Assembly (NCBI GenBank): GCA_964468795.1
Contig: CAYXWL010000001.1
Coordinates: 232,246-296,245, forward strand
DNA length: 64,000 nucleotides
Direction: 5' to 3'
Origin: an uncultured Candidatus Saccharibacteria bacterium
GTDB lineage: Bacteria > Patescibacteriota > Minisyncoccia > Phycocordibacterales > DATDWN01
Shown: positions 19,421-32,112 of the stretch, in pieces
How positions within the stretch are numbered: the stretch's first letter is position 1
Layout of the letters: every line of letters starts with the position of its first letter
Translations under genes and position numbers: made by a program
The notes under the pieces: generated by a model
Database searches by the model: none
What the model was told of the DNA's origin: nothing
Seen by the model: the letters and a program-made list of their open reading frames with translations, nothing else

Positions 19421-19534
19421 AAAGAACTTTGGAACAATTTTGTTCCTTCAGAATACTTAACCTAGGTTAAACCCTCTGAAGGAAGTCCGAGGATATATGA
19501 CTTCCTCGGACGATACCGGGCTGACGCGCCGATA
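19421..19534 (-). promoter_or_regulatory. conserved structured leader, copy B (the homolog is at 26174..26288 on the plus strand)
   Basis: ~75 nt nearly identical to copy A: ATCGGCGCGTCAGCCCGgTATCGTCCGAGGAAGTCATATATCCTCGGACTTCCTTCAGAG. Covarying hairpins and GTTCTTT follow. Confidence 0.5.
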
Positions 19535-19544
19535 GACGTTATTG

Positions 19545-20093
19545 CTAGACTTCTCCCGAGAGATCGTTCGGATCTTCGTGGCCGTCCCACTCGGTGTCGA
19601 CATCTTCTCGCTTCCACTTGAGCCGATGGAGGACGTACTCGATCCTGCCCCTGGATTGTTTGGACAGCTTCCACTTCAACCAGCCGAACTCCTTCTCGAG
19701 CTGAGCAAGATTCTCGATCTGCCAACGCTTCAGGCAAGAAACGAGTCTTGGACTGAAGATGGATTTCGTCGAGATCTCCTCCCGAGGCCGATCTTTCAGC
19801 GAGTCGACGATGGCGTTGAAAGCCATCTCGAACTTCTGTTGCTCTACGGGCGGAGGCGGGAGTGGCTTCGGCGGTTTGCCGGCGTTCTTTCGTGCGGTGC
19901 GAACCTTACGAACTGCCTTGCGGGCAATCTGCATGATTCGCTCCTTCGTGACGGCAAACTCCTGGCCGATGTCGTTGTAGCTCATCCCTTGCGCGAGTAA
20001 GGTCAGGATTCTCTCCTCGCGGGGAGTCGTCCTCATGCGCTCGACTGGTGTGATCTCCGAAATGACAATGCCGAACAAAGTTTTTTTCTGCAA
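19545..20093 (-). CDS. sigma70 region-4-like HTH protein with an extra C-terminal domain
   Basis: TTG start after GGAG. TPREERILTLLAQGMSYNDIGQEFAVTKERIMQIARKAVRKV resembles sigma region 4. FSPRLVSCLKRWQIENLAQL weakly resembles an RpoA-CTD helix-hairpin-helix. Confidence 0.55.
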   Translation of the reverse strand: MQKKTLFGIVISEITPVERMRTTPREERILTLLAQGMSYNDIGQEFAVTKERIMQIARKAVRKVRTARKNAGKPPKPLPPPPVEQQKFEMAFNAIVDSLKDRPREEISTKSIFSPRLVSCLKRWQIENLAQLEKEFGWLKWKLSKQSRGRIEYVLHRLKWKREDVDTEWDGHEDPNDLSGEV

Positions 20094-20128
20094 TGTTTTT
20101 CTCCAAAGAACAAAGGGAAATTATTTTC

Positions 20129-20165
20129 CCGTCAAAACTCTGAAATAAATTCAAAACTTTGACGG
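20129..20165 (-). repeat. IR family copy f (variant arms CCGTCAAA / TTTGACGG)
   Basis: Preceded on the minus strand by hairpin GCCGAACttcgGTTCGGC. Followed by GGGAAAataaTTTCCC, GTTCTTT, GGAG and the start of 19545..20093. Confidence 0.6.
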
Positions 20166-20421
20166 AAGCCGAACCGAAGTTCGGCAAGTGTGATGGTAAA
20201 CTCGGAGTAGTTGTAGCCACTCTTTGCTCTTTAGGTAACTTGCGCCCTTAGCGAATACCCTGATTCCATCGCCAGACAGAATCACGGGAGAGTGGTTAAA
20301 GCTACAACTTCTAACCAACTACTCGCTCAATATGTATCACGGGCCATCACGCTCCACGACACGTCGCAACATTTTTCCTGCTCAAAAAATTCTACGATGT
20401 ACCGTGGAACTTTACAAAGAA

Positions 20422-20474
20422 CTTCTGTTTCGTCGTTTCCGACTCATCAGGTGAGACATACATCTCACGACAGG
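20422..20474 (-). ncRNA. hammerhead ribozyme, type III (HHR1)
   Basis: Minus strand: cCUGUC|GUGAGA-UGUAUG-UCUCAC-CUGAUGA-GUCG-GAAA-CGAC-GAAAC-AG. Full catalytic core, GUC cleavage site. Confidence 0.8.
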
Positions 20475-20558
20475 TGCCTTGGGTGCTAATCAAGACAAAT
20501 GATTTTTGGCCCTACTGCCCCTTGCGGGTACTCGGACCTTCTGTTGCCAAGCCGGTCA

Positions 20559-29317: not shown

Positions 29318-29425
29318 AACTTTAGAATATCAGATTGACTCTCTTGAATTACTGCTGCCTAAAGTTGTCTACATTTAGGGTCTTGGGACGCTCTGGACTC
29401 CTCACGAGGTCTGCGTCATCAATGT

Positions 29426-30757
29426 ATGTATATGAATAATCAAATACATATGCCGGGATTACCGGTCAAACAAGTAGTAGTACCAGTGAAAGTGAAATAC
29501 TGTCTGTATGCTCGCAAAAGTACAGAGTCAGAGGAAAGACAAGTATTGAGTATTGATAGTCAGATCAAGGAAATGCTTCAACTTGCTGAAAGAGAAGGAC
29601 TGGAGATCATTACCATGAAAAGAGAAAGCCACTCTGCTAAAGAAACGGATCAGAGACCCGTCTTTAACGAAATGATTGAAGAGATAAAGCAAGGAAAATA
29701 TAATGGGATATTAACTTGGGCACCGGATAGAATATCGAGAAATGCAGGAGACTTGGGAAAAGTAGTTGATCTCATGGATGCTAAAAAGTTGGAGGATATC
29801 CGTACATACGGACAGCGATTTATGAACTCTCCGAATGATAAGTTCATGTTAATGATTTTATGTTCACAGGCTAAACTAGAGAATGACAACCGAGGCATCA
29901 ATGTAAAGAGAGGTTTAAGAACTAGAGCTGAAATGGGACTGTGGGCAGGTACGGCACCACTTGGGTATTTGAATCAGAATAGAATGGATAAGAAATGTCA
30001 GGTGATTTTGGATCCCTTACGAGCGCCGATAATAAAGAAAATGTTTGAGAAAGTAGCATATGAGCAATTCTCTGGCAGAAAGATATTTAATTGGCTTAAG
30101 TTTGAACTTAATTTCTACACGAGAGGAAACAAACCTCTAACGCTTAGTGGTATCTATCGAATACTGCAAAGTCCTTTCTACTATGGAGTCTTTGAGAGAC
30201 CTCTTGGAAGTGGTAACTGGTATCAAGGCAAACATGAACCTTTAATTACTCAAGAGTTATTTGAAAAAGTGAAAGCTCAACTCAAACGTGATCAGATAGT
30301 CAGAGAAGCCAAAGAATTTGCTTTCACCAAACTATTTACTTGCGGATACTGTGGCAGTGGCATCTCAGCAGAAGAAAAGTGGAAACAATTATCAGGAGGT
30401 GGTGCTAATAGATATATCTACTATTCGTGTTCAAGAGCAAGAGATAGGAATTGTAAGAATAAATATATTAGAGAAGAAGATTTGATTACTGAATTACTTA
30501 AGATATTGGATAAAGTAAATATTAACGAACTGGGCATGAGACAGAAACTGGAAGATGAGATTGCGAGATTCAATATCTTTCAGAGATCAGTACTAGGTGC
30601 TAAAGAAAAAGTCCAAACTAACAAAGATACTGACATACGAAATTATGCTAAGTACATCTTGAAAGAAGGGAGTACTGTTGAGAAGAGAGAACTACTCGCA
30701 AACCTCCGATCGAGAATTATTTATAAAGATAAAACACTGACTCTGGTTAAAGAGTAA
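29426..30757 (+). CDS. large serine recombinase
   Basis: Resolvase-type N-terminus CLYARKSTESEERQVLSIDSQ, recombinase domain, and Cys-rich zinc-ribbon CGYCGSG..YYSCSRARDRNC. Confidence 0.85.
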   Translation: MYMNNQIHMPGLPVKQVVVPVKVKYCLYARKSTESEERQVLSIDSQIKEMLQLAEREGLEIITMKRESHSAKETDQRPVFNEMIEEIKQGKYNGILTWAPDRISRNAGDLGKVVDLMDAKKLEDIRTYGQRFMNSPNDKFMLMILCSQAKLENDNRGINVKRGLRTRAEMGLWAGTAPLGYLNQNRMDKKCQVILDPLRAPIIKKMFEKVAYEQFSGRKIFNWLKFELNFYTRGNKPLTLSGIYRILQSPFYYGVFERPLGSGNWYQGKHEPLITQELFEKVKAQLKRDQIVREAKEFAFTKLFTCGYCGSGISAEEKWKQLSGGGANRYIYYSCSRARDRNCKNKYIREEDLITELLKILDKVNINELGMRQKLEDEIARFNIFQRSVLGAKEKVQTNKDTDIRNYAKYILKEGSTVEKRELLANLRSRIIYKDKTLTLVKE

Positions 30758-30848
30758 CTAAAAAGCCTCCGGCAAACTTCTCCTTTCGGAAAAAATTTGC
30801 GCGGAGGCTCAAGTATTCAAGATGGACAAGTCCTCAAGAGTTCAAGGT

Positions 30849-31661
30849 TCACTTCTTCCGGGAGGACGCGAGACCGATGCGGTCGTTACGGTAGTCGTCG
30901 TGCCAGCAGTAGACGCCGAGACCCTTGGCATCGAAGAGGCCGACGCGGACGTGGTAGCCGTACGAGTCAAGACTCGATGTCCGGACGTAGATGTTCTCGA
31001 AGAGTCGGATACCACGAACCTCGTAGTAGGTCGTGATGAACCAGCTCATCTCGGCAGCGTTCGGAACCGTTTCCAACTTGGAGAGGAGCTTGTTCTGCTC
31101 TCCCCAGGTCTTCGAGGTTGAGTTCTTGACCGGCGTCTTCCGGATGGCGAGCCACCCGAAGGACGTCTTGTCCTCGCGAGCGAAGTTCTCGTTCTCGTAC
31201 CAACCACCCGACTTGGAGTAGAAGTGGTTGGACTTCACGGCTCGAACTTCGAGCAAGGACATCGCACTCGGAGATGCGGGCATTACGGCGTAGCCGTTTG
31301 CCTTGCACCACTCGAGCACGTCGAGTGACGGAACGGTCTCGGCGAGCTCTGCGAGTTGATCGTCGGTGTAGACCAGACCACGAGCCTTCGCCACTTCCTC
31401 TGGCGTGATAAAATCGACGCCGAGGATGACTTGAGCTTGCGTGTAGTCCGGAACCTTCACCGAGAAACGACGAACGATGTCTCGGACTGCGTCACGAGTG
31501 GCATCCATCGCTTCAGTACCACGGGAGATGAACTCGACACCAGCCTCATATGAACCGAGATACTTCTCGACCATAAGAGGAACCTGTGCCTGAAACATCT
31601 CCACAATGTGCTGAACCTGCTCCGACGTAGCCGGGGCGGTTTCAGATGTGATCTTTGTCAT
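30849..31661 (-). CDS. DGR variable (target) protein with C-terminal CLec-like VR
   Basis: Start trimmed to MTKITSETAP after GAAGGAG. C-terminus ..LDSYGYHVRVGLFDAKGLGVYCWHDDYRNDRIGLASSRKK is encoded by the VR. Confidence 0.85.
   Translation of the reverse strand: MTKITSETAPATSEQVQHIVEMFQAQVPLMVEKYLGSYEAGVEFISRGTEAMDATRDAVRDIVRRFSVKVPDYTQAQVILGVDFITPEEVAKARGLVYTDDQLAELAETVPSLDVLEWCKANGYAVMPASPSAMSLLEVRAVKSNHFYSKSGGWYENENFAREDKTSFGWLAIRKTPVKNSTSKTWGEQNKLLSKLETVPNAAEMSWFITTYYEVRGIRLFENIYVRTSSLDSYGYHVRVGLFDAKGLGVYCWHDDYRNDRIGLASSRKK
30858..30973 (-). repeat. DGR variable repeat (VR)
   Basis: 116 nt aligned by hand to the TR. 16 differences, every one at a TR adenine. Confidence 0.9.
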
Positions 31662-31799
31662 CACGATCTCCTTCACCTGTAAGTCCGATTCGCTCGGACG
31701 GTTGCGACTTGTCTCTGATTGAGACGAGTTTTTTAAGTCCAGAATAGGACCCAAAAAGCTCGTCTCAAGAAGTGAATCTATCAAAGAACTGACAGTAAT

Positions 31800-31829
31800 A
31801 GTATATCACATATTATAGCCATTTGTCAA
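31800..31829 (-). promoter_or_regulatory. promoter for the DGR target gene
   Basis: Minus strand TTGACA-18 nt-TATACT. GTTCTTT motif ~10 nt downstream. Confidence 0.45.
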
Positions 31830-32112
31830 TGTCTAGAAAATCTCTCAGGTAAGCCATATAATATGGGTATCTTGCTAATGTAGTTTGGGCTACGGCTCAA
31901 GTTCGCGAGATATCTCACCTAGTGAGACGCCAGAGTGCCAGTGGTTTACGGATCATGGCAGAGTGCGATTAAGGATAGAGAGAACTTCTTGCTTGGTTTC
32001 AGTAGAGGTGTTCATAAAGAACTGCTCTCGAATAAAATTCAGAGATAAGAGAATATAGATTCGAAAGAATAGTAACTCTCAAGTCTCGGTGACACAGATG
32101 GAACTAAGCAAT

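Follow-up and report, generated by a model that had tools for sequence, protein, structure and literature searches.

A recurrent BoxA-like heptamer ahead of ribosome-binding sites and behind ribozymes in a mobile gene island: candidate sites of reiterated Nus-factor loading

Why should one heptanucleotide recur, mostly in one orientation, just ahead of ribosome-binding sites, just behind hammerhead ribozymes and just behind a promoter within a single stretch of bacterial DNA? Here we analyse the heptamer GTTCTTT in a stretch of 64,000 nucleotides (nt; contig CAYXWL010000001.1, positions 232,246 to 296,245; hereafter the window). The window is AT-rich (about 38% G + C) and carries type IV pilus genes, a ribosomal-protein operon, a transfer-messenger RNA (tmRNA) and two transfer RNA (tRNA) genes; a mosaic island of about 50% G + C spans about 18.4 to 32.3 kb. 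The island encodes a large serine recombinase and a diversity-generating retroelement (DGR) with a target gene (31661 to 30849) under its own promoter, a template repeat (about 32130-32230), Avd and a reverse transcriptase. Its cargo genes are small, and most are without a Pfam family. The spelling and the setting of the heptamer suggest that it may be a BoxA site, the RNA signal at which Nus factors are loaded.

Two divergent operons and the DGR target gene provide the frame in which the heptamers have to be read. The minus-strand operon comprises a sigma-70-type promoter (23145 to 23117, 11/12), a 330-nt leader, the genes g1 to g6 and an intrinsic terminator (18443 to 18420), and the plus-strand operon comprises a sigma-70-type promoter (25256 to 25284), the genes p1 to p6 and an intrinsic terminator (27777 to 27806). 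The DGR target gene has a sigma-70-type promoter at 31800-31829 on the minus strand (TTGACA-18-TATACT, 11/12). The product of g5 is a Sigma70_r4 helix-turn-helix protein that consists of region 4 only, without region 2, and the g4 product has a weak zinc-finger match. Most of the heptamers lie on the sense strand, inside units with predicted promoters and terminators at their ends, and are presumably transcribed.

In the whole window GTTCTTT occurs 37 times, where 19.0 ± 4.3 copies are expected. The GC-rich blocks of the island (18420-23100, 23310-23650, 24440-27800 and 30760-32280; 9.9 kb) hold 15 copies against 2.3 ± 1.5 (500 dinucleotide shuffles, maximum 7), and the 20 copies outside the island (15.4 ± 4.2 expected) are background, so that the whole excess lies in the GC-rich blocks. 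The heptamer is the commonest 7-mer of the island and ranks second in over-representation, behind the arm of the inverted repeat described below. Twelve of the 15 island copies are sense to the local operon; two are antisense (19884-19890, inside g5, and 26637-26643, just before the Shine-Dalgarno (SD) sequence of p4) and one (32016-32022, minus strand) is unassigned. Copies in the host region lie nearly all within open reading frames (ORFs), mostly antisense, and none is found in the setting of hairpin, heptamer and SD. A first-pass annotation of this DNA had called the heptamer strand-consistent and had not noticed it at host gene starts; the strand consistency holds for the 12 sense copies and breaks at the SD-adjacent copy before p4. 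In the leader of p4 (26589-26657, plus strand) no sense heptamer follows the module, and the inverted copy AAAGAAC stands at 26637-26643 instead; its GAACC is able to pair with GGTTC just past the SD, which would place the SD in a hairpin loop.

The copies are found in three settings, namely after a promoter (at about +5), after hammerheads and after hairpins. The last is part of a recurrent module that reads, from 5' to 3', upstream stop codon, G + C-rich hairpin, long AU-rich hairpin, small hairpin, 0-4 nt, GTTCTTT, SD and start codon, with the heptamer as the last element before the SD; its usual spelling is long hairpin, small hairpin, 2-4 nt, GTTCTTTGA, GGAGG, 5-8 nt and ATG. The long hairpin is formed by an inverted repeat (e.g. 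UCCCAUCAAAG...UUUUGAUGGGA) with a predicted stem of 17-20 bp, and looks like a substrate of RNase III, by which it may be cleaved. In most copies the heptamer is followed by the SD at 0-4 nt and by the start codon at 9-14 nt. Among 44 module copies, 29 have an SD that begins 0-5 nt past the heptamer; heptamer and SD adjoin or overlap in most copies (GUUCUUUGAGGAGG), and the composite GTTCTTTGAGGAGG is the commonest module form. In a few modules a second copy, or the variant GTTCTTC or ATTCTTC, stands just past the upstream stop codon, ahead of the hairpins.

The hairpins of the modules have a very high predicted stability. In 39 of the 44 module copies, against 25% of random positions, a hairpin with 4 bp or more ends 0-6 nt upstream of the heptamer. 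The small hairpin varies in sequence and length but keeps its pairing (83.5%, and at most 64% when the frame is slid); its formal covariation is weak because the lower four pairs hardly vary. It re-uses GGGA from the 3' arm of the repeat. This GGGA (e.g. in the module at 27180-27231, plus strand) can pair with TCCC in the 5' arm or, alternatively, with the small hairpin's 3' strand, so that the small hairpin and the base of the long one exclude each other, a possible switch. In predicted folds the heptamer itself pairs with no one partner consistently (its unpaired probability averages 0.35-0.55), and its best-conserved positions are G1 and C4.

All sites before gene starts that the first-pass annotation had listed, whether exact or near-variant, are present in the window. 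On the minus strand the first copy (22776-22782) stands at the end of the leader of about 330 nt, 32 nt before the ATG of g1 (22743). At g2 (start 22352) the heptamer GTTCTTTGAGGAG (22365-22371) adjoins the SD; a small boxB-like hairpin, GGGACGAAtggTTCGTTCC (22373-22393), ends 1-2 nt before it, preceded by the long AU-rich inverted-repeat hairpin CCCATCAAAG...CTTTGATGGG (22390-22459). The copy before the SD of g3 (start 21651) is ATTCTTT, with one mismatch (21669-21675). Before g4 (start 20939), the inverted-repeat hairpin (20979-21016) and the small hairpin GAGGCAAAtggTTTGTCTC (20963-20981), which ends 2 nt before the heptamer, lead to GTTCTTTAATAGGAGG (20954-20960). The same arrangement is found before g5 (start 20093), with an inverted-repeat hairpin at 20129-20165, the small hairpin GGGAAAataaTTTCCC (20115-20130) ending 3 nt before the heptamer, and GTTCTTTGGAG (20105-20111). 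The copy of g6 (start 19386), GTTCTTTAAAAATAG (19421-19427), lies 34 nt before the gene and 3 nt after the small hairpin GGAACaaaattGTTCC (19431-19446). The last inverted-repeat module of this operon (18705-18744) is without a heptamer, and about 260 nt of non-coding, GC-rich DNA (18444-18700) lie between it and the terminator; terminal modules of two related loci (L017, position 837, and L025, position 851) resemble it, with GGGAAGnnATTCCC....

On the plus strand the variant GTTCATT (25748-25754) precedes p2 (start 25783) and follows the small hairpin GGGACaatttgGTCCC (25726-25743). Before p3 (start 26302) the small hairpin GGAACGAAtagTTCGTTC (26262-26280) ends 1 nt before GTTCTTTGGGGAGG (26282-26288), and before p5 (start 27255) the inverted-repeat hairpin with a predicted long AU-rich stem (27180-27219) is followed by GTTCTTTTACAGGAG (27235-27241). 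Two further plus-strand copies that had been placed by stop codons are also there: the variant GTTCTTC (25662-25668) lies directly after the stop codon of p1 and 5' of the hairpin cluster, and an exact copy (27150-27156) flanks the hairpin cluster of p5 on its left. In the DGR the heptamer had been placed about 10 nt past the -10 box of the target promoter. It is found at 31783-31789 on the minus strand, one base from the position first given, as GTTCTTTGATAGA at about +4/+5 of the target-gene transcript and 10 nt past the TATACT box.

Between the minus-strand genes lie three type III hammerhead ribozymes (Rfam RF00008) at 22031-22085 (41.5 bits), 21314-21368 (44.4 bits) and 20422-20476 (42.3 bits). 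Their E-values are 5e-7 to 3e-6, and their scores fall just under the gathering score of 48.5 bits; when the three are aligned, compensatory changes are found in stems I and II. The heptamer follows each of them within 0-3 nt and opens an untranslated RNA of 250-340 nt. It begins at the last base of the Rfam match of the first and third hammerheads (GTTCTTTAAAATAAAA, 22025-22031, and GTTCTTTGTAAAG, 20416-20422) and 2-3 nt past the second (21305-21311). The earlier statement that it stands directly 3' of every hammerhead is correct for these three and does not extend further: the heptamer is absent directly after three hammerheads in related loci (L025, L158 and L252), although in L158 a heptamer-bearing module lies about 75 nt past the ribozyme, and it is absent after 11 similar hammerheads in viral contigs. 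The post-hammerhead stretches (20170-20415, 21020-21304 and 21690-22024, minus strand) are without a convincing ORF. Those after the second and third hammerheads are paralogous, with CCACG...CGTGGAGC...GGCCCRTGATACAT in common, and the stretches may be a family of processed non-coding RNAs freed by the ribozymes.

Related loci allow the constancy of the heptamer to be judged. Homologues of g6 (59-87% identity) led to the loci L017, L025 and L026. L017 has different neighbour genes and four modules of the same build, three with GTTCTTT or GTTCATT at the equivalent place and a fourth (L017:837) without a heptamer. When species-representative genomes were searched with a loose repeat pattern, the result was 120 mostly chance matches and a single true relative, L080, a metagenome-assembled genome (MAG) of Candidatus Saccharibacteria. 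A metagenome scan used the repeat arms only (CCCATCAAAG N12-32 TTTGATGGGA) and was therefore blind to the heptamer; it yielded 18 distinct modules with AT-rich loops. The 40 nt downstream contain an exact heptamer in 13 of them and GTTCATT in two more, where about 0.2% per module is expected by chance. With a wider arm pattern the heptamer was found on the right flank in 33 of about 47 modules, on the left flank in 7 and on both in 5. The module family was not found in a viral-contig collection, in which two module scans gave chance matches only. Strand bias is complete in four family loci (6/0 in L080, L154 and L248, 4/0 in L240), and the commonest variant, GTTCATT, recurs in L017, L025, L208, L224, L227 and L257.

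The comparison also separates the heptamer from the repeat. The arms vary in a compensatory manner (CCCATCAAAG/TTTGATGGG, CCCACCAAAG/TTTGGTGGG, CCGTCAGAG/TCTGACGG and CCGTTAAAG/TTTAACGG), and arm mismatches on the transcribed strand are G:T in 44 cases and A:C in 15, an excess pointing to a fold in the transcribed strand. From module to module the repeat arms and small hairpins differ and the heptamer is constant, so that it does not pair with the arms. Terminal modules with no downstream gene usually lack it, and both coding and non-coding units begin at it. Some loci have it on both sides of a hairpin cluster (27150 and 27235 in the window; L080, L159 and L207), and copies in L159, L202 and L248 are followed by a conserved non-coding RNA, not by an SD. 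At L159:214, L202:2031 and 2527, L227:2066 and L248:4381 (motif-strand coordinates) a conserved sequence, gtaacgNttccRgtaaatcctgaC...gcaggtatgga, takes the place of an SD after the heptamer; it can form a hairpin and is probably another RNA family of these islands. In L080 (from 4716 onward, reverse complement) and in L248, a unit of heptamer and SD precedes a protein of 580 amino acids with Ro60/TROVE and vWA domains (Rsr-like; in L080, Pfam 4.7e-17 and 4.8e-11). Near this gene in L080, heptamers are followed by conserved non-coding sequences that might be its Y-RNA-like partners.

What kind of signal could be shared by all these positions? The sense-strand bias in both divergent operons and in the relatives, the position behind RNA-only structures and the spelling of BoxA all favour a signal at the RNA level, one of the two readings first put forward. 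BoxA is a linear site in nascent RNA for the dimer of NusB and NusE (ribosomal protein S10), which nucleates a Nus elongation complex that resists termination and pausing, and it acts in ribosomal RNA (rRNA) operons and in the nut sites of phage lambda. GTTCTTT corresponds to positions 1-7 of the published gamma-proteobacterial consensus GYTCTTTAANA (PMC5725501). The full 11-mer is present at 22025, 20954 and 19421 in the window and at L017:45, L080:3664, L080:4123 (reverse-complement coordinates) and L231:1049. The two bases after the heptamer are GA in 22 and AA in 6 of the 44 module copies (28 together), and copies without a following SD are A-rich at +8 to +11.

Ribosomal RNA operons were taken from records of a plasmid collection, and matches to G[CT]TC[TC]TT outside the 16S gene were listed. 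The spacers of Listeria and Priestia carry the identical GTTCTTTGAAAACTAG, the leader and spacer of Mycoplasmopsis GTTCTTTGAAAACT (the Gram-positive rRNA form), the spacers of Clostridioides and Cetobacterium GTTCTTTACGAAC and GTTCTTTGTAAG, respectively, and the leader of Tsukamurella GTTCTTTGAGAACTC; in Escherichia coli the leader has GCTCTTTAACAA and the spacer GCTCTTTAAAAA, both in the regions of reported BoxA. The E. coli operon (L266) also contains, besides its two GCTCTTT copies, GTTCTTTGTAGTG at position 2465, about 10 nt past the 3' end of the 16S gene, a reminder that lone heptamer matches also occur outside BoxA sites. A commercial Mycoplasma primer for polymerase chain reaction (PCR) of the spacer is GTTCTTTGAAAACTGAAT (PMC4312986). 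By its spelling and the following GA or AA, the island consensus GTTCTTTGA, i.e. GTTCTTT(G/A)A, is the BoxA core of several phyla. Neither the window nor the family loci fetched contain an rRNA gene, and the host's own BoxA would share the GTTCTTT spelling by analogy with six other phyla or classes.

The surroundings can be compared as well. In rRNA operons, nut-like sites are found in both the leader and the 16S-23S spacer and run from a boxB hairpin through boxA to boxC (PMC8632103); boxB is reported to be dispensable there. The spacer BoxA of Mycoplasmopsis is preceded by the hairpin GAGAGAActttttTTCTCTC and the bases 'at', which is the same layout of a hairpin plus 2 nt. Ribosomal protein S1 is also reported to bind BoxA. 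Outside rRNA operons, suhB has a BoxA 6 nt from its SD that represses translation and depends on Nus factors to do so, and BoxA sites also precede a parE-like toxin gene and CRISPR arrays (Baniulyte 2017; Stringer 2020).

We give a probability of roughly 0.5 to the reading that the island heptamers are BoxA, i.e. reiterated loading sites for NusB and S10 that are renewed after each hammerhead or hairpin. Each copy directly follows a feature at which the nascent RNA ends, is cut or is blocked, be it a promoter, a hammerhead or a pair of strong hairpins. NusB-S10 would bind each BoxA as it emerges and tether it to RNA polymerase; the Nus-type complex built in this way would resist termination and pausing, and the polymerase could read through the intergenic hairpins and the untranslated structured RNAs of 250-340 nt. 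A hammerhead cut, or cleavage of the long hairpin by RNase III, would sever the polymerase from the earlier BoxA, and since cleavage would remove that site, a fresh BoxA would be supplied after each processing site to restore the link, comparable to the second BoxA in the 16S-23S spacer. One mechanism could in this way cover the post-promoter, post-ribozyme and post-hairpin settings. The binding of Nus factors, antitermination and cleavage by RNase III are all inferred, and GUUCUUUGA, GUUCUUUGAGGAGG and GUUCUUUAAAAAUAG would be candidate RNA ligands of NusB-S10. Because the heptamer adjoins or overlaps the SD, an added effect on translation initiation is probable, and the fusion of BoxA to the SD, by analogy with suhB, suggests such a second effect on the next gene.

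Several observations weigh against this reading. The match in spelling rests on rRNA loci of other groups and not of the host lineage, and in most copies BoxA positions 10-12 are the SD and not an A-rich tail. The density of about one copy per 400 nt far exceeds that of any described BoxA system, in which one or two per operon suffice. The near-fixed distance to SD and start codon fits translation at least as well as transcription, the commonest variant GTTCATT alters position 5, and the hammerheads of relatives are not directly followed by the heptamer. The formal covariation of the small hairpin is weak, and the leader of the minus-strand operon is without a copy near its 5' end, the first lying about 330 nt downstream. 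A variant of the reading would be that the heptamer only mimics BoxA and is read by an island-specific factor. More tentatively, these GC-rich islands of small AT-rich genomes, one relative being in the Candidatus Saccharibacteria MAG, may have a previously undescribed expression architecture in which each gene or structured RNA is a unit set off from the next by a ribozyme or an RNase III-type hairpin, and each unit opens with a nut-like site (small hairpin and BoxA) fused to a ribosome-binding site, so that processing, Nus re-loading and translation initiation are coupled unit by unit.

The main rival is a translation-start signal, an extension of the ribosome-binding site read by S1, by the 30S subunit (as a standby site or enhancer) or by an RNA-binding protein of host or island (as a global translational operator), with no role in elongation. 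The distances to SD and start codon, the frequency of the composite GTTCTTTGAGGAGG, the usual absence of the heptamer from terminal modules without a gene and the reported binding of S1 to BoxA RNA would all suit it, and the SAS/ESAS repeats show that phages can have an asymmetric one-orientation repeat at gene starts with an inverted repeat upstream (PMC3203893). We nevertheless consider it rather unlikely as an account of the heptamer, although it and the BoxA reading are not mutually exclusive: the three post-hammerhead copies are followed by 250-340 nt of untranslated RNA with no SD, the copy at +5 of the DGR target transcript is about 115 nt from its SD, the left-flank copies and those before non-coding RNA in L159, L202 and L248 are unexplained, and the identity over 9 nt with BoxA of rRNA operons is left as coincidence. 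That the heptamer begins coding and non-coding units alike, sometimes on both sides of a hairpin cluster, and that it has no consistent pairing partner (unpaired probability as above) in an island rich in RNA-processing devices could instead mark the site of a sequence-specific endoribonuclease, of host or island, which sets the 5' ends of mature mRNAs and non-coding RNAs. This is improbable, since no nuclease candidate was found among the island proteins, the left-flank copy is present in only 7 of about 47 modules, and the BoxA identity is again unexplained; moreover, a hammerhead cut 55 nt upstream would make a second cut seem redundant. The small hairpin and the U-rich heptamer might also be taken together as a weak intrinsic terminator or attenuator before each gene, and a loose scan does flag 22393-22373, 25726-25743, 26262-26280, 20981-20963, 20130-20115 and 19446-19431. 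However, terminator-like sites number 15 against 13.6 in shuffles, the short stems contain 3-4 G-C pairs and end 1-4 nt away from the tract, and the post-hammerhead and post-promoter copies have no such hairpin. A terminator needs the U residues, yet the invariant G1 and C4 are best conserved; the heptamer is probably not a terminator tract, and we give this reading very little weight.

Readings at the level of DNA were also considered. The cassette-like layout, with small unrelated genes, a hairpin conserved in structure and variable in sequence, and a 7-nt boundary core in one orientation, the different gene neighbours in the window and L017, the modules with both flanks and the serine recombinase of the island would fit an attC-like recombination core for gene cassettes, or the duplicated target of a mobile hairpin element. 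Yet the spelling of GTTCTTT departs from the integron core GTTRRRY, left-flank copies are direct and not inverse, only a serine recombinase and no integron (tyrosine) integrase was found, and no more than 5 of about 47 modules have the heptamer on both sides; the G:T excess over A:C mismatches (44 and 15), the orientation that tracks transcription in two divergent operons and the position behind ribozymes and a promoter further make this very improbable. The first-pass annotation had also proposed a -10-like element of a non-canonical promoter, possibly used by the island's region-4 protein. The distance of 17-20 nt from the hexamer TTGATG/TTGACG on which it drew is confirmed in the window, the island does encode a Sigma70_r4 protein, and the copies at L154:2170 and 31783 stand at the expected start region of a sigma-70-type promoter. 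In relatives, however, the distance is 9-21 nt, a variable spacer whose pairing is conserved; there is no TAnnnT and no consensus promoter at the modules, the sites are internal to operons, and the g5 protein is region 4 only, with no region 2. As the SD lies 0-4 nt past the heptamer, a transcript starting about 7 nt downstream would lose its SD. We therefore do not retain the promoter element, whose likelihood we regard as slight at best.

Other candidates were rejected. The heptamer is not a component of the hammerhead, as it does not pair with the 5' flank and is absent after the 11 viral-contig and three related-locus hammerheads. Pairing with the 5' repeat arm, or with an anti-SD-like CCUCC there, is contradicted by arms that vary (CCCATCAAAG, CCCACCAAAG, CCGTCAGAG and CCTTCAGAG) while heptamer and SD are constant, and pairing with the 3' tail of 16S rRNA beyond the SD by the bases 5' of GGAGG, which by inspection are not complementary to CCUCCUUUCU. 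A miniature mobile element or target-site duplication was dismissed on the 5 of about 47 modules with both flanks, and an integron attC core on the mismatch to GTTRRRY (inverse RYYYAAC) and the rarity of left-flank direct copies (7 of about 47). Membership in the SAS/ESAS of cluster K mycobacteriophages was dropped because the sequence differs, the similar layout making them an analogue. The site of cold-shock proteins, GTCTTTG/T, resembles the heptamer and is not identical to it. A literature search gave no paper with GTTCTTT beside an SD, and nothing that ties hammerheads to DGRs beyond Weinberg 2017.

Some further features of the window were recorded. Between 18400 and 32300, GC-rich blocks with modules are interleaved with AT-rich host-like genes, namely a TrmB-family regulator (23653-24393), three more ORFs (27808-29317) and the serine recombinase (29426-30757), hence the mosaic. 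A GC-rich stretch of 337 nt (23316-23652, plus strand) is served by a sigma-70-type promoter of its own (23281-23309, 11/12), closes with a strong terminator (23616-23649) and has a folding energy of -144.5 kcal/mol (z = -7.7 against shuffles). Nothing in Rfam matches it, and it resembles a structured RNA gene of no known class; GTTCTTG stands at 23334-23340, some 20 nt from the point where it is predicted to start. The stretch 31945-32117 (plus strand), which lies next to the DGR template repeat on the upstream side, has a weak match to the reverse-transcriptase-associated RNA motif RT-16 (26 bits, E = 2.6), within which the antisense heptamer AAAGAAC (32016-32022) falls. The DGR reverse transcriptase is broken into two ORFs, 32629-33231 and 33171-33719, which overlap (33171-33231) where a (GA)n run, gagagagagagagagag, is located; the break may reflect a frameshift, an assembly error or slippage-prone phase variation. 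About 70 nt past the end of this gene and about 1.5 kb past the last GC-rich block lies a tRNA-Ser (33793-33883), which might be an integration site. The tRNA-Ile with anticodon TAT (39805-39879, minus strand), uncommon in bacteria, fits a reduced, unusual host genome.

If the BoxA reading is true, the antitermination machinery of the host would be recruited many times per operon, in step with RNA cleavage, and the hammerheads and long hairpins between the genes of mobile elements would gain a functional reason. It would also extend BoxA control to the mobile elements of little-studied, uncultivated bacteria with small genomes. The signature of hairpin, GTTCTTTGA and SD is searchable and could serve to find such islands and their cargo, as with the DGR target gene here and the Ro60-like gene in a relative. 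BoxA itself is known, and lambda, suhB, a toxin gene and CRISPR arrays are known to use it; new, and undescribed in the literature searched, is a BoxA-like module that recurs gene by gene in mobile islands of small AT-rich genomes, joined to the ribosome-binding site and associated with ribozymes and hairpins.

Among known systems, the nut-like sites of rRNA operons (with NusB-NusE/S10, NusA, NusG, SuhB and S4) share the core GTTCTTTGA in six Gram-positive, Mollicute, Fusobacterial and Actinobacterial loci. Both are sense-strand RNA elements with a hairpin immediately upstream, placed near the transcript start and again past a processing region, in long, highly structured and partly untranslated transcripts. 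They differ in that the island has about one putative Nus site per gene where rRNA has two per operon, in that most island copies are fused to the SD and are without the A-rich 3' half and boxC, and in the mobile setting with protein-coding cargo. The nutL and nutR sites of lambda, which serve N-dependent antitermination in early transcripts, offer a parallel for a mobile element whose BoxA would borrow the Nus machinery of its host to read through terminators; in lambda, however, boxA precedes boxB, the reverse of the order here, there are two sites and not many, and no N-like protein was identified in the island. Long intergenic hairpins in polycistronic transcripts are also known from the intercistronic RNase III sites of phage T7 and from the Correia elements of Neisseria, which are cut by RNase III and shape the ends and stability of mRNAs. 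Cleavage of the island hairpins would make them similar, whereas the T7 sites and Correia elements are without a BoxA-like heptamer beside the hairpin. Like the island copies, the BoxA sites of suhB, the parE-like toxin gene and CRISPR arrays lie outside rRNA, that of suhB near an SD and that of CRISPR protecting a long, untranslated, repeat-structured transcript; unlike them, those sites are single per locus and known from proteobacteria and a few other phyla, and the island motif is iterated with ribozymes and hairpins. The SAS of cluster K phages is a 13-bp repeat, GGGATAGGAGCCC, located 3-7 bp before start codons, with the 17-bp imperfect repeats of ESAS upstream and function unknown (Pope 2011, PMC3203893). 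It too is an asymmetric repeat of one orientation that lies upstream of starts and overlaps the SD in a mobile genome (in its non-structural part), and about half of the SAS have an upstream imperfect inverted repeat with a variable spacer. Sequence and host differ, the ESAS repeats do not support RNA pairing as the island repeats do, and the island motif also occurs away from starts. Even if the BoxA reading is wrong, the heptamer would still be a strongly conserved, start-linked signal comparable to the unexplained SAS and ESAS.

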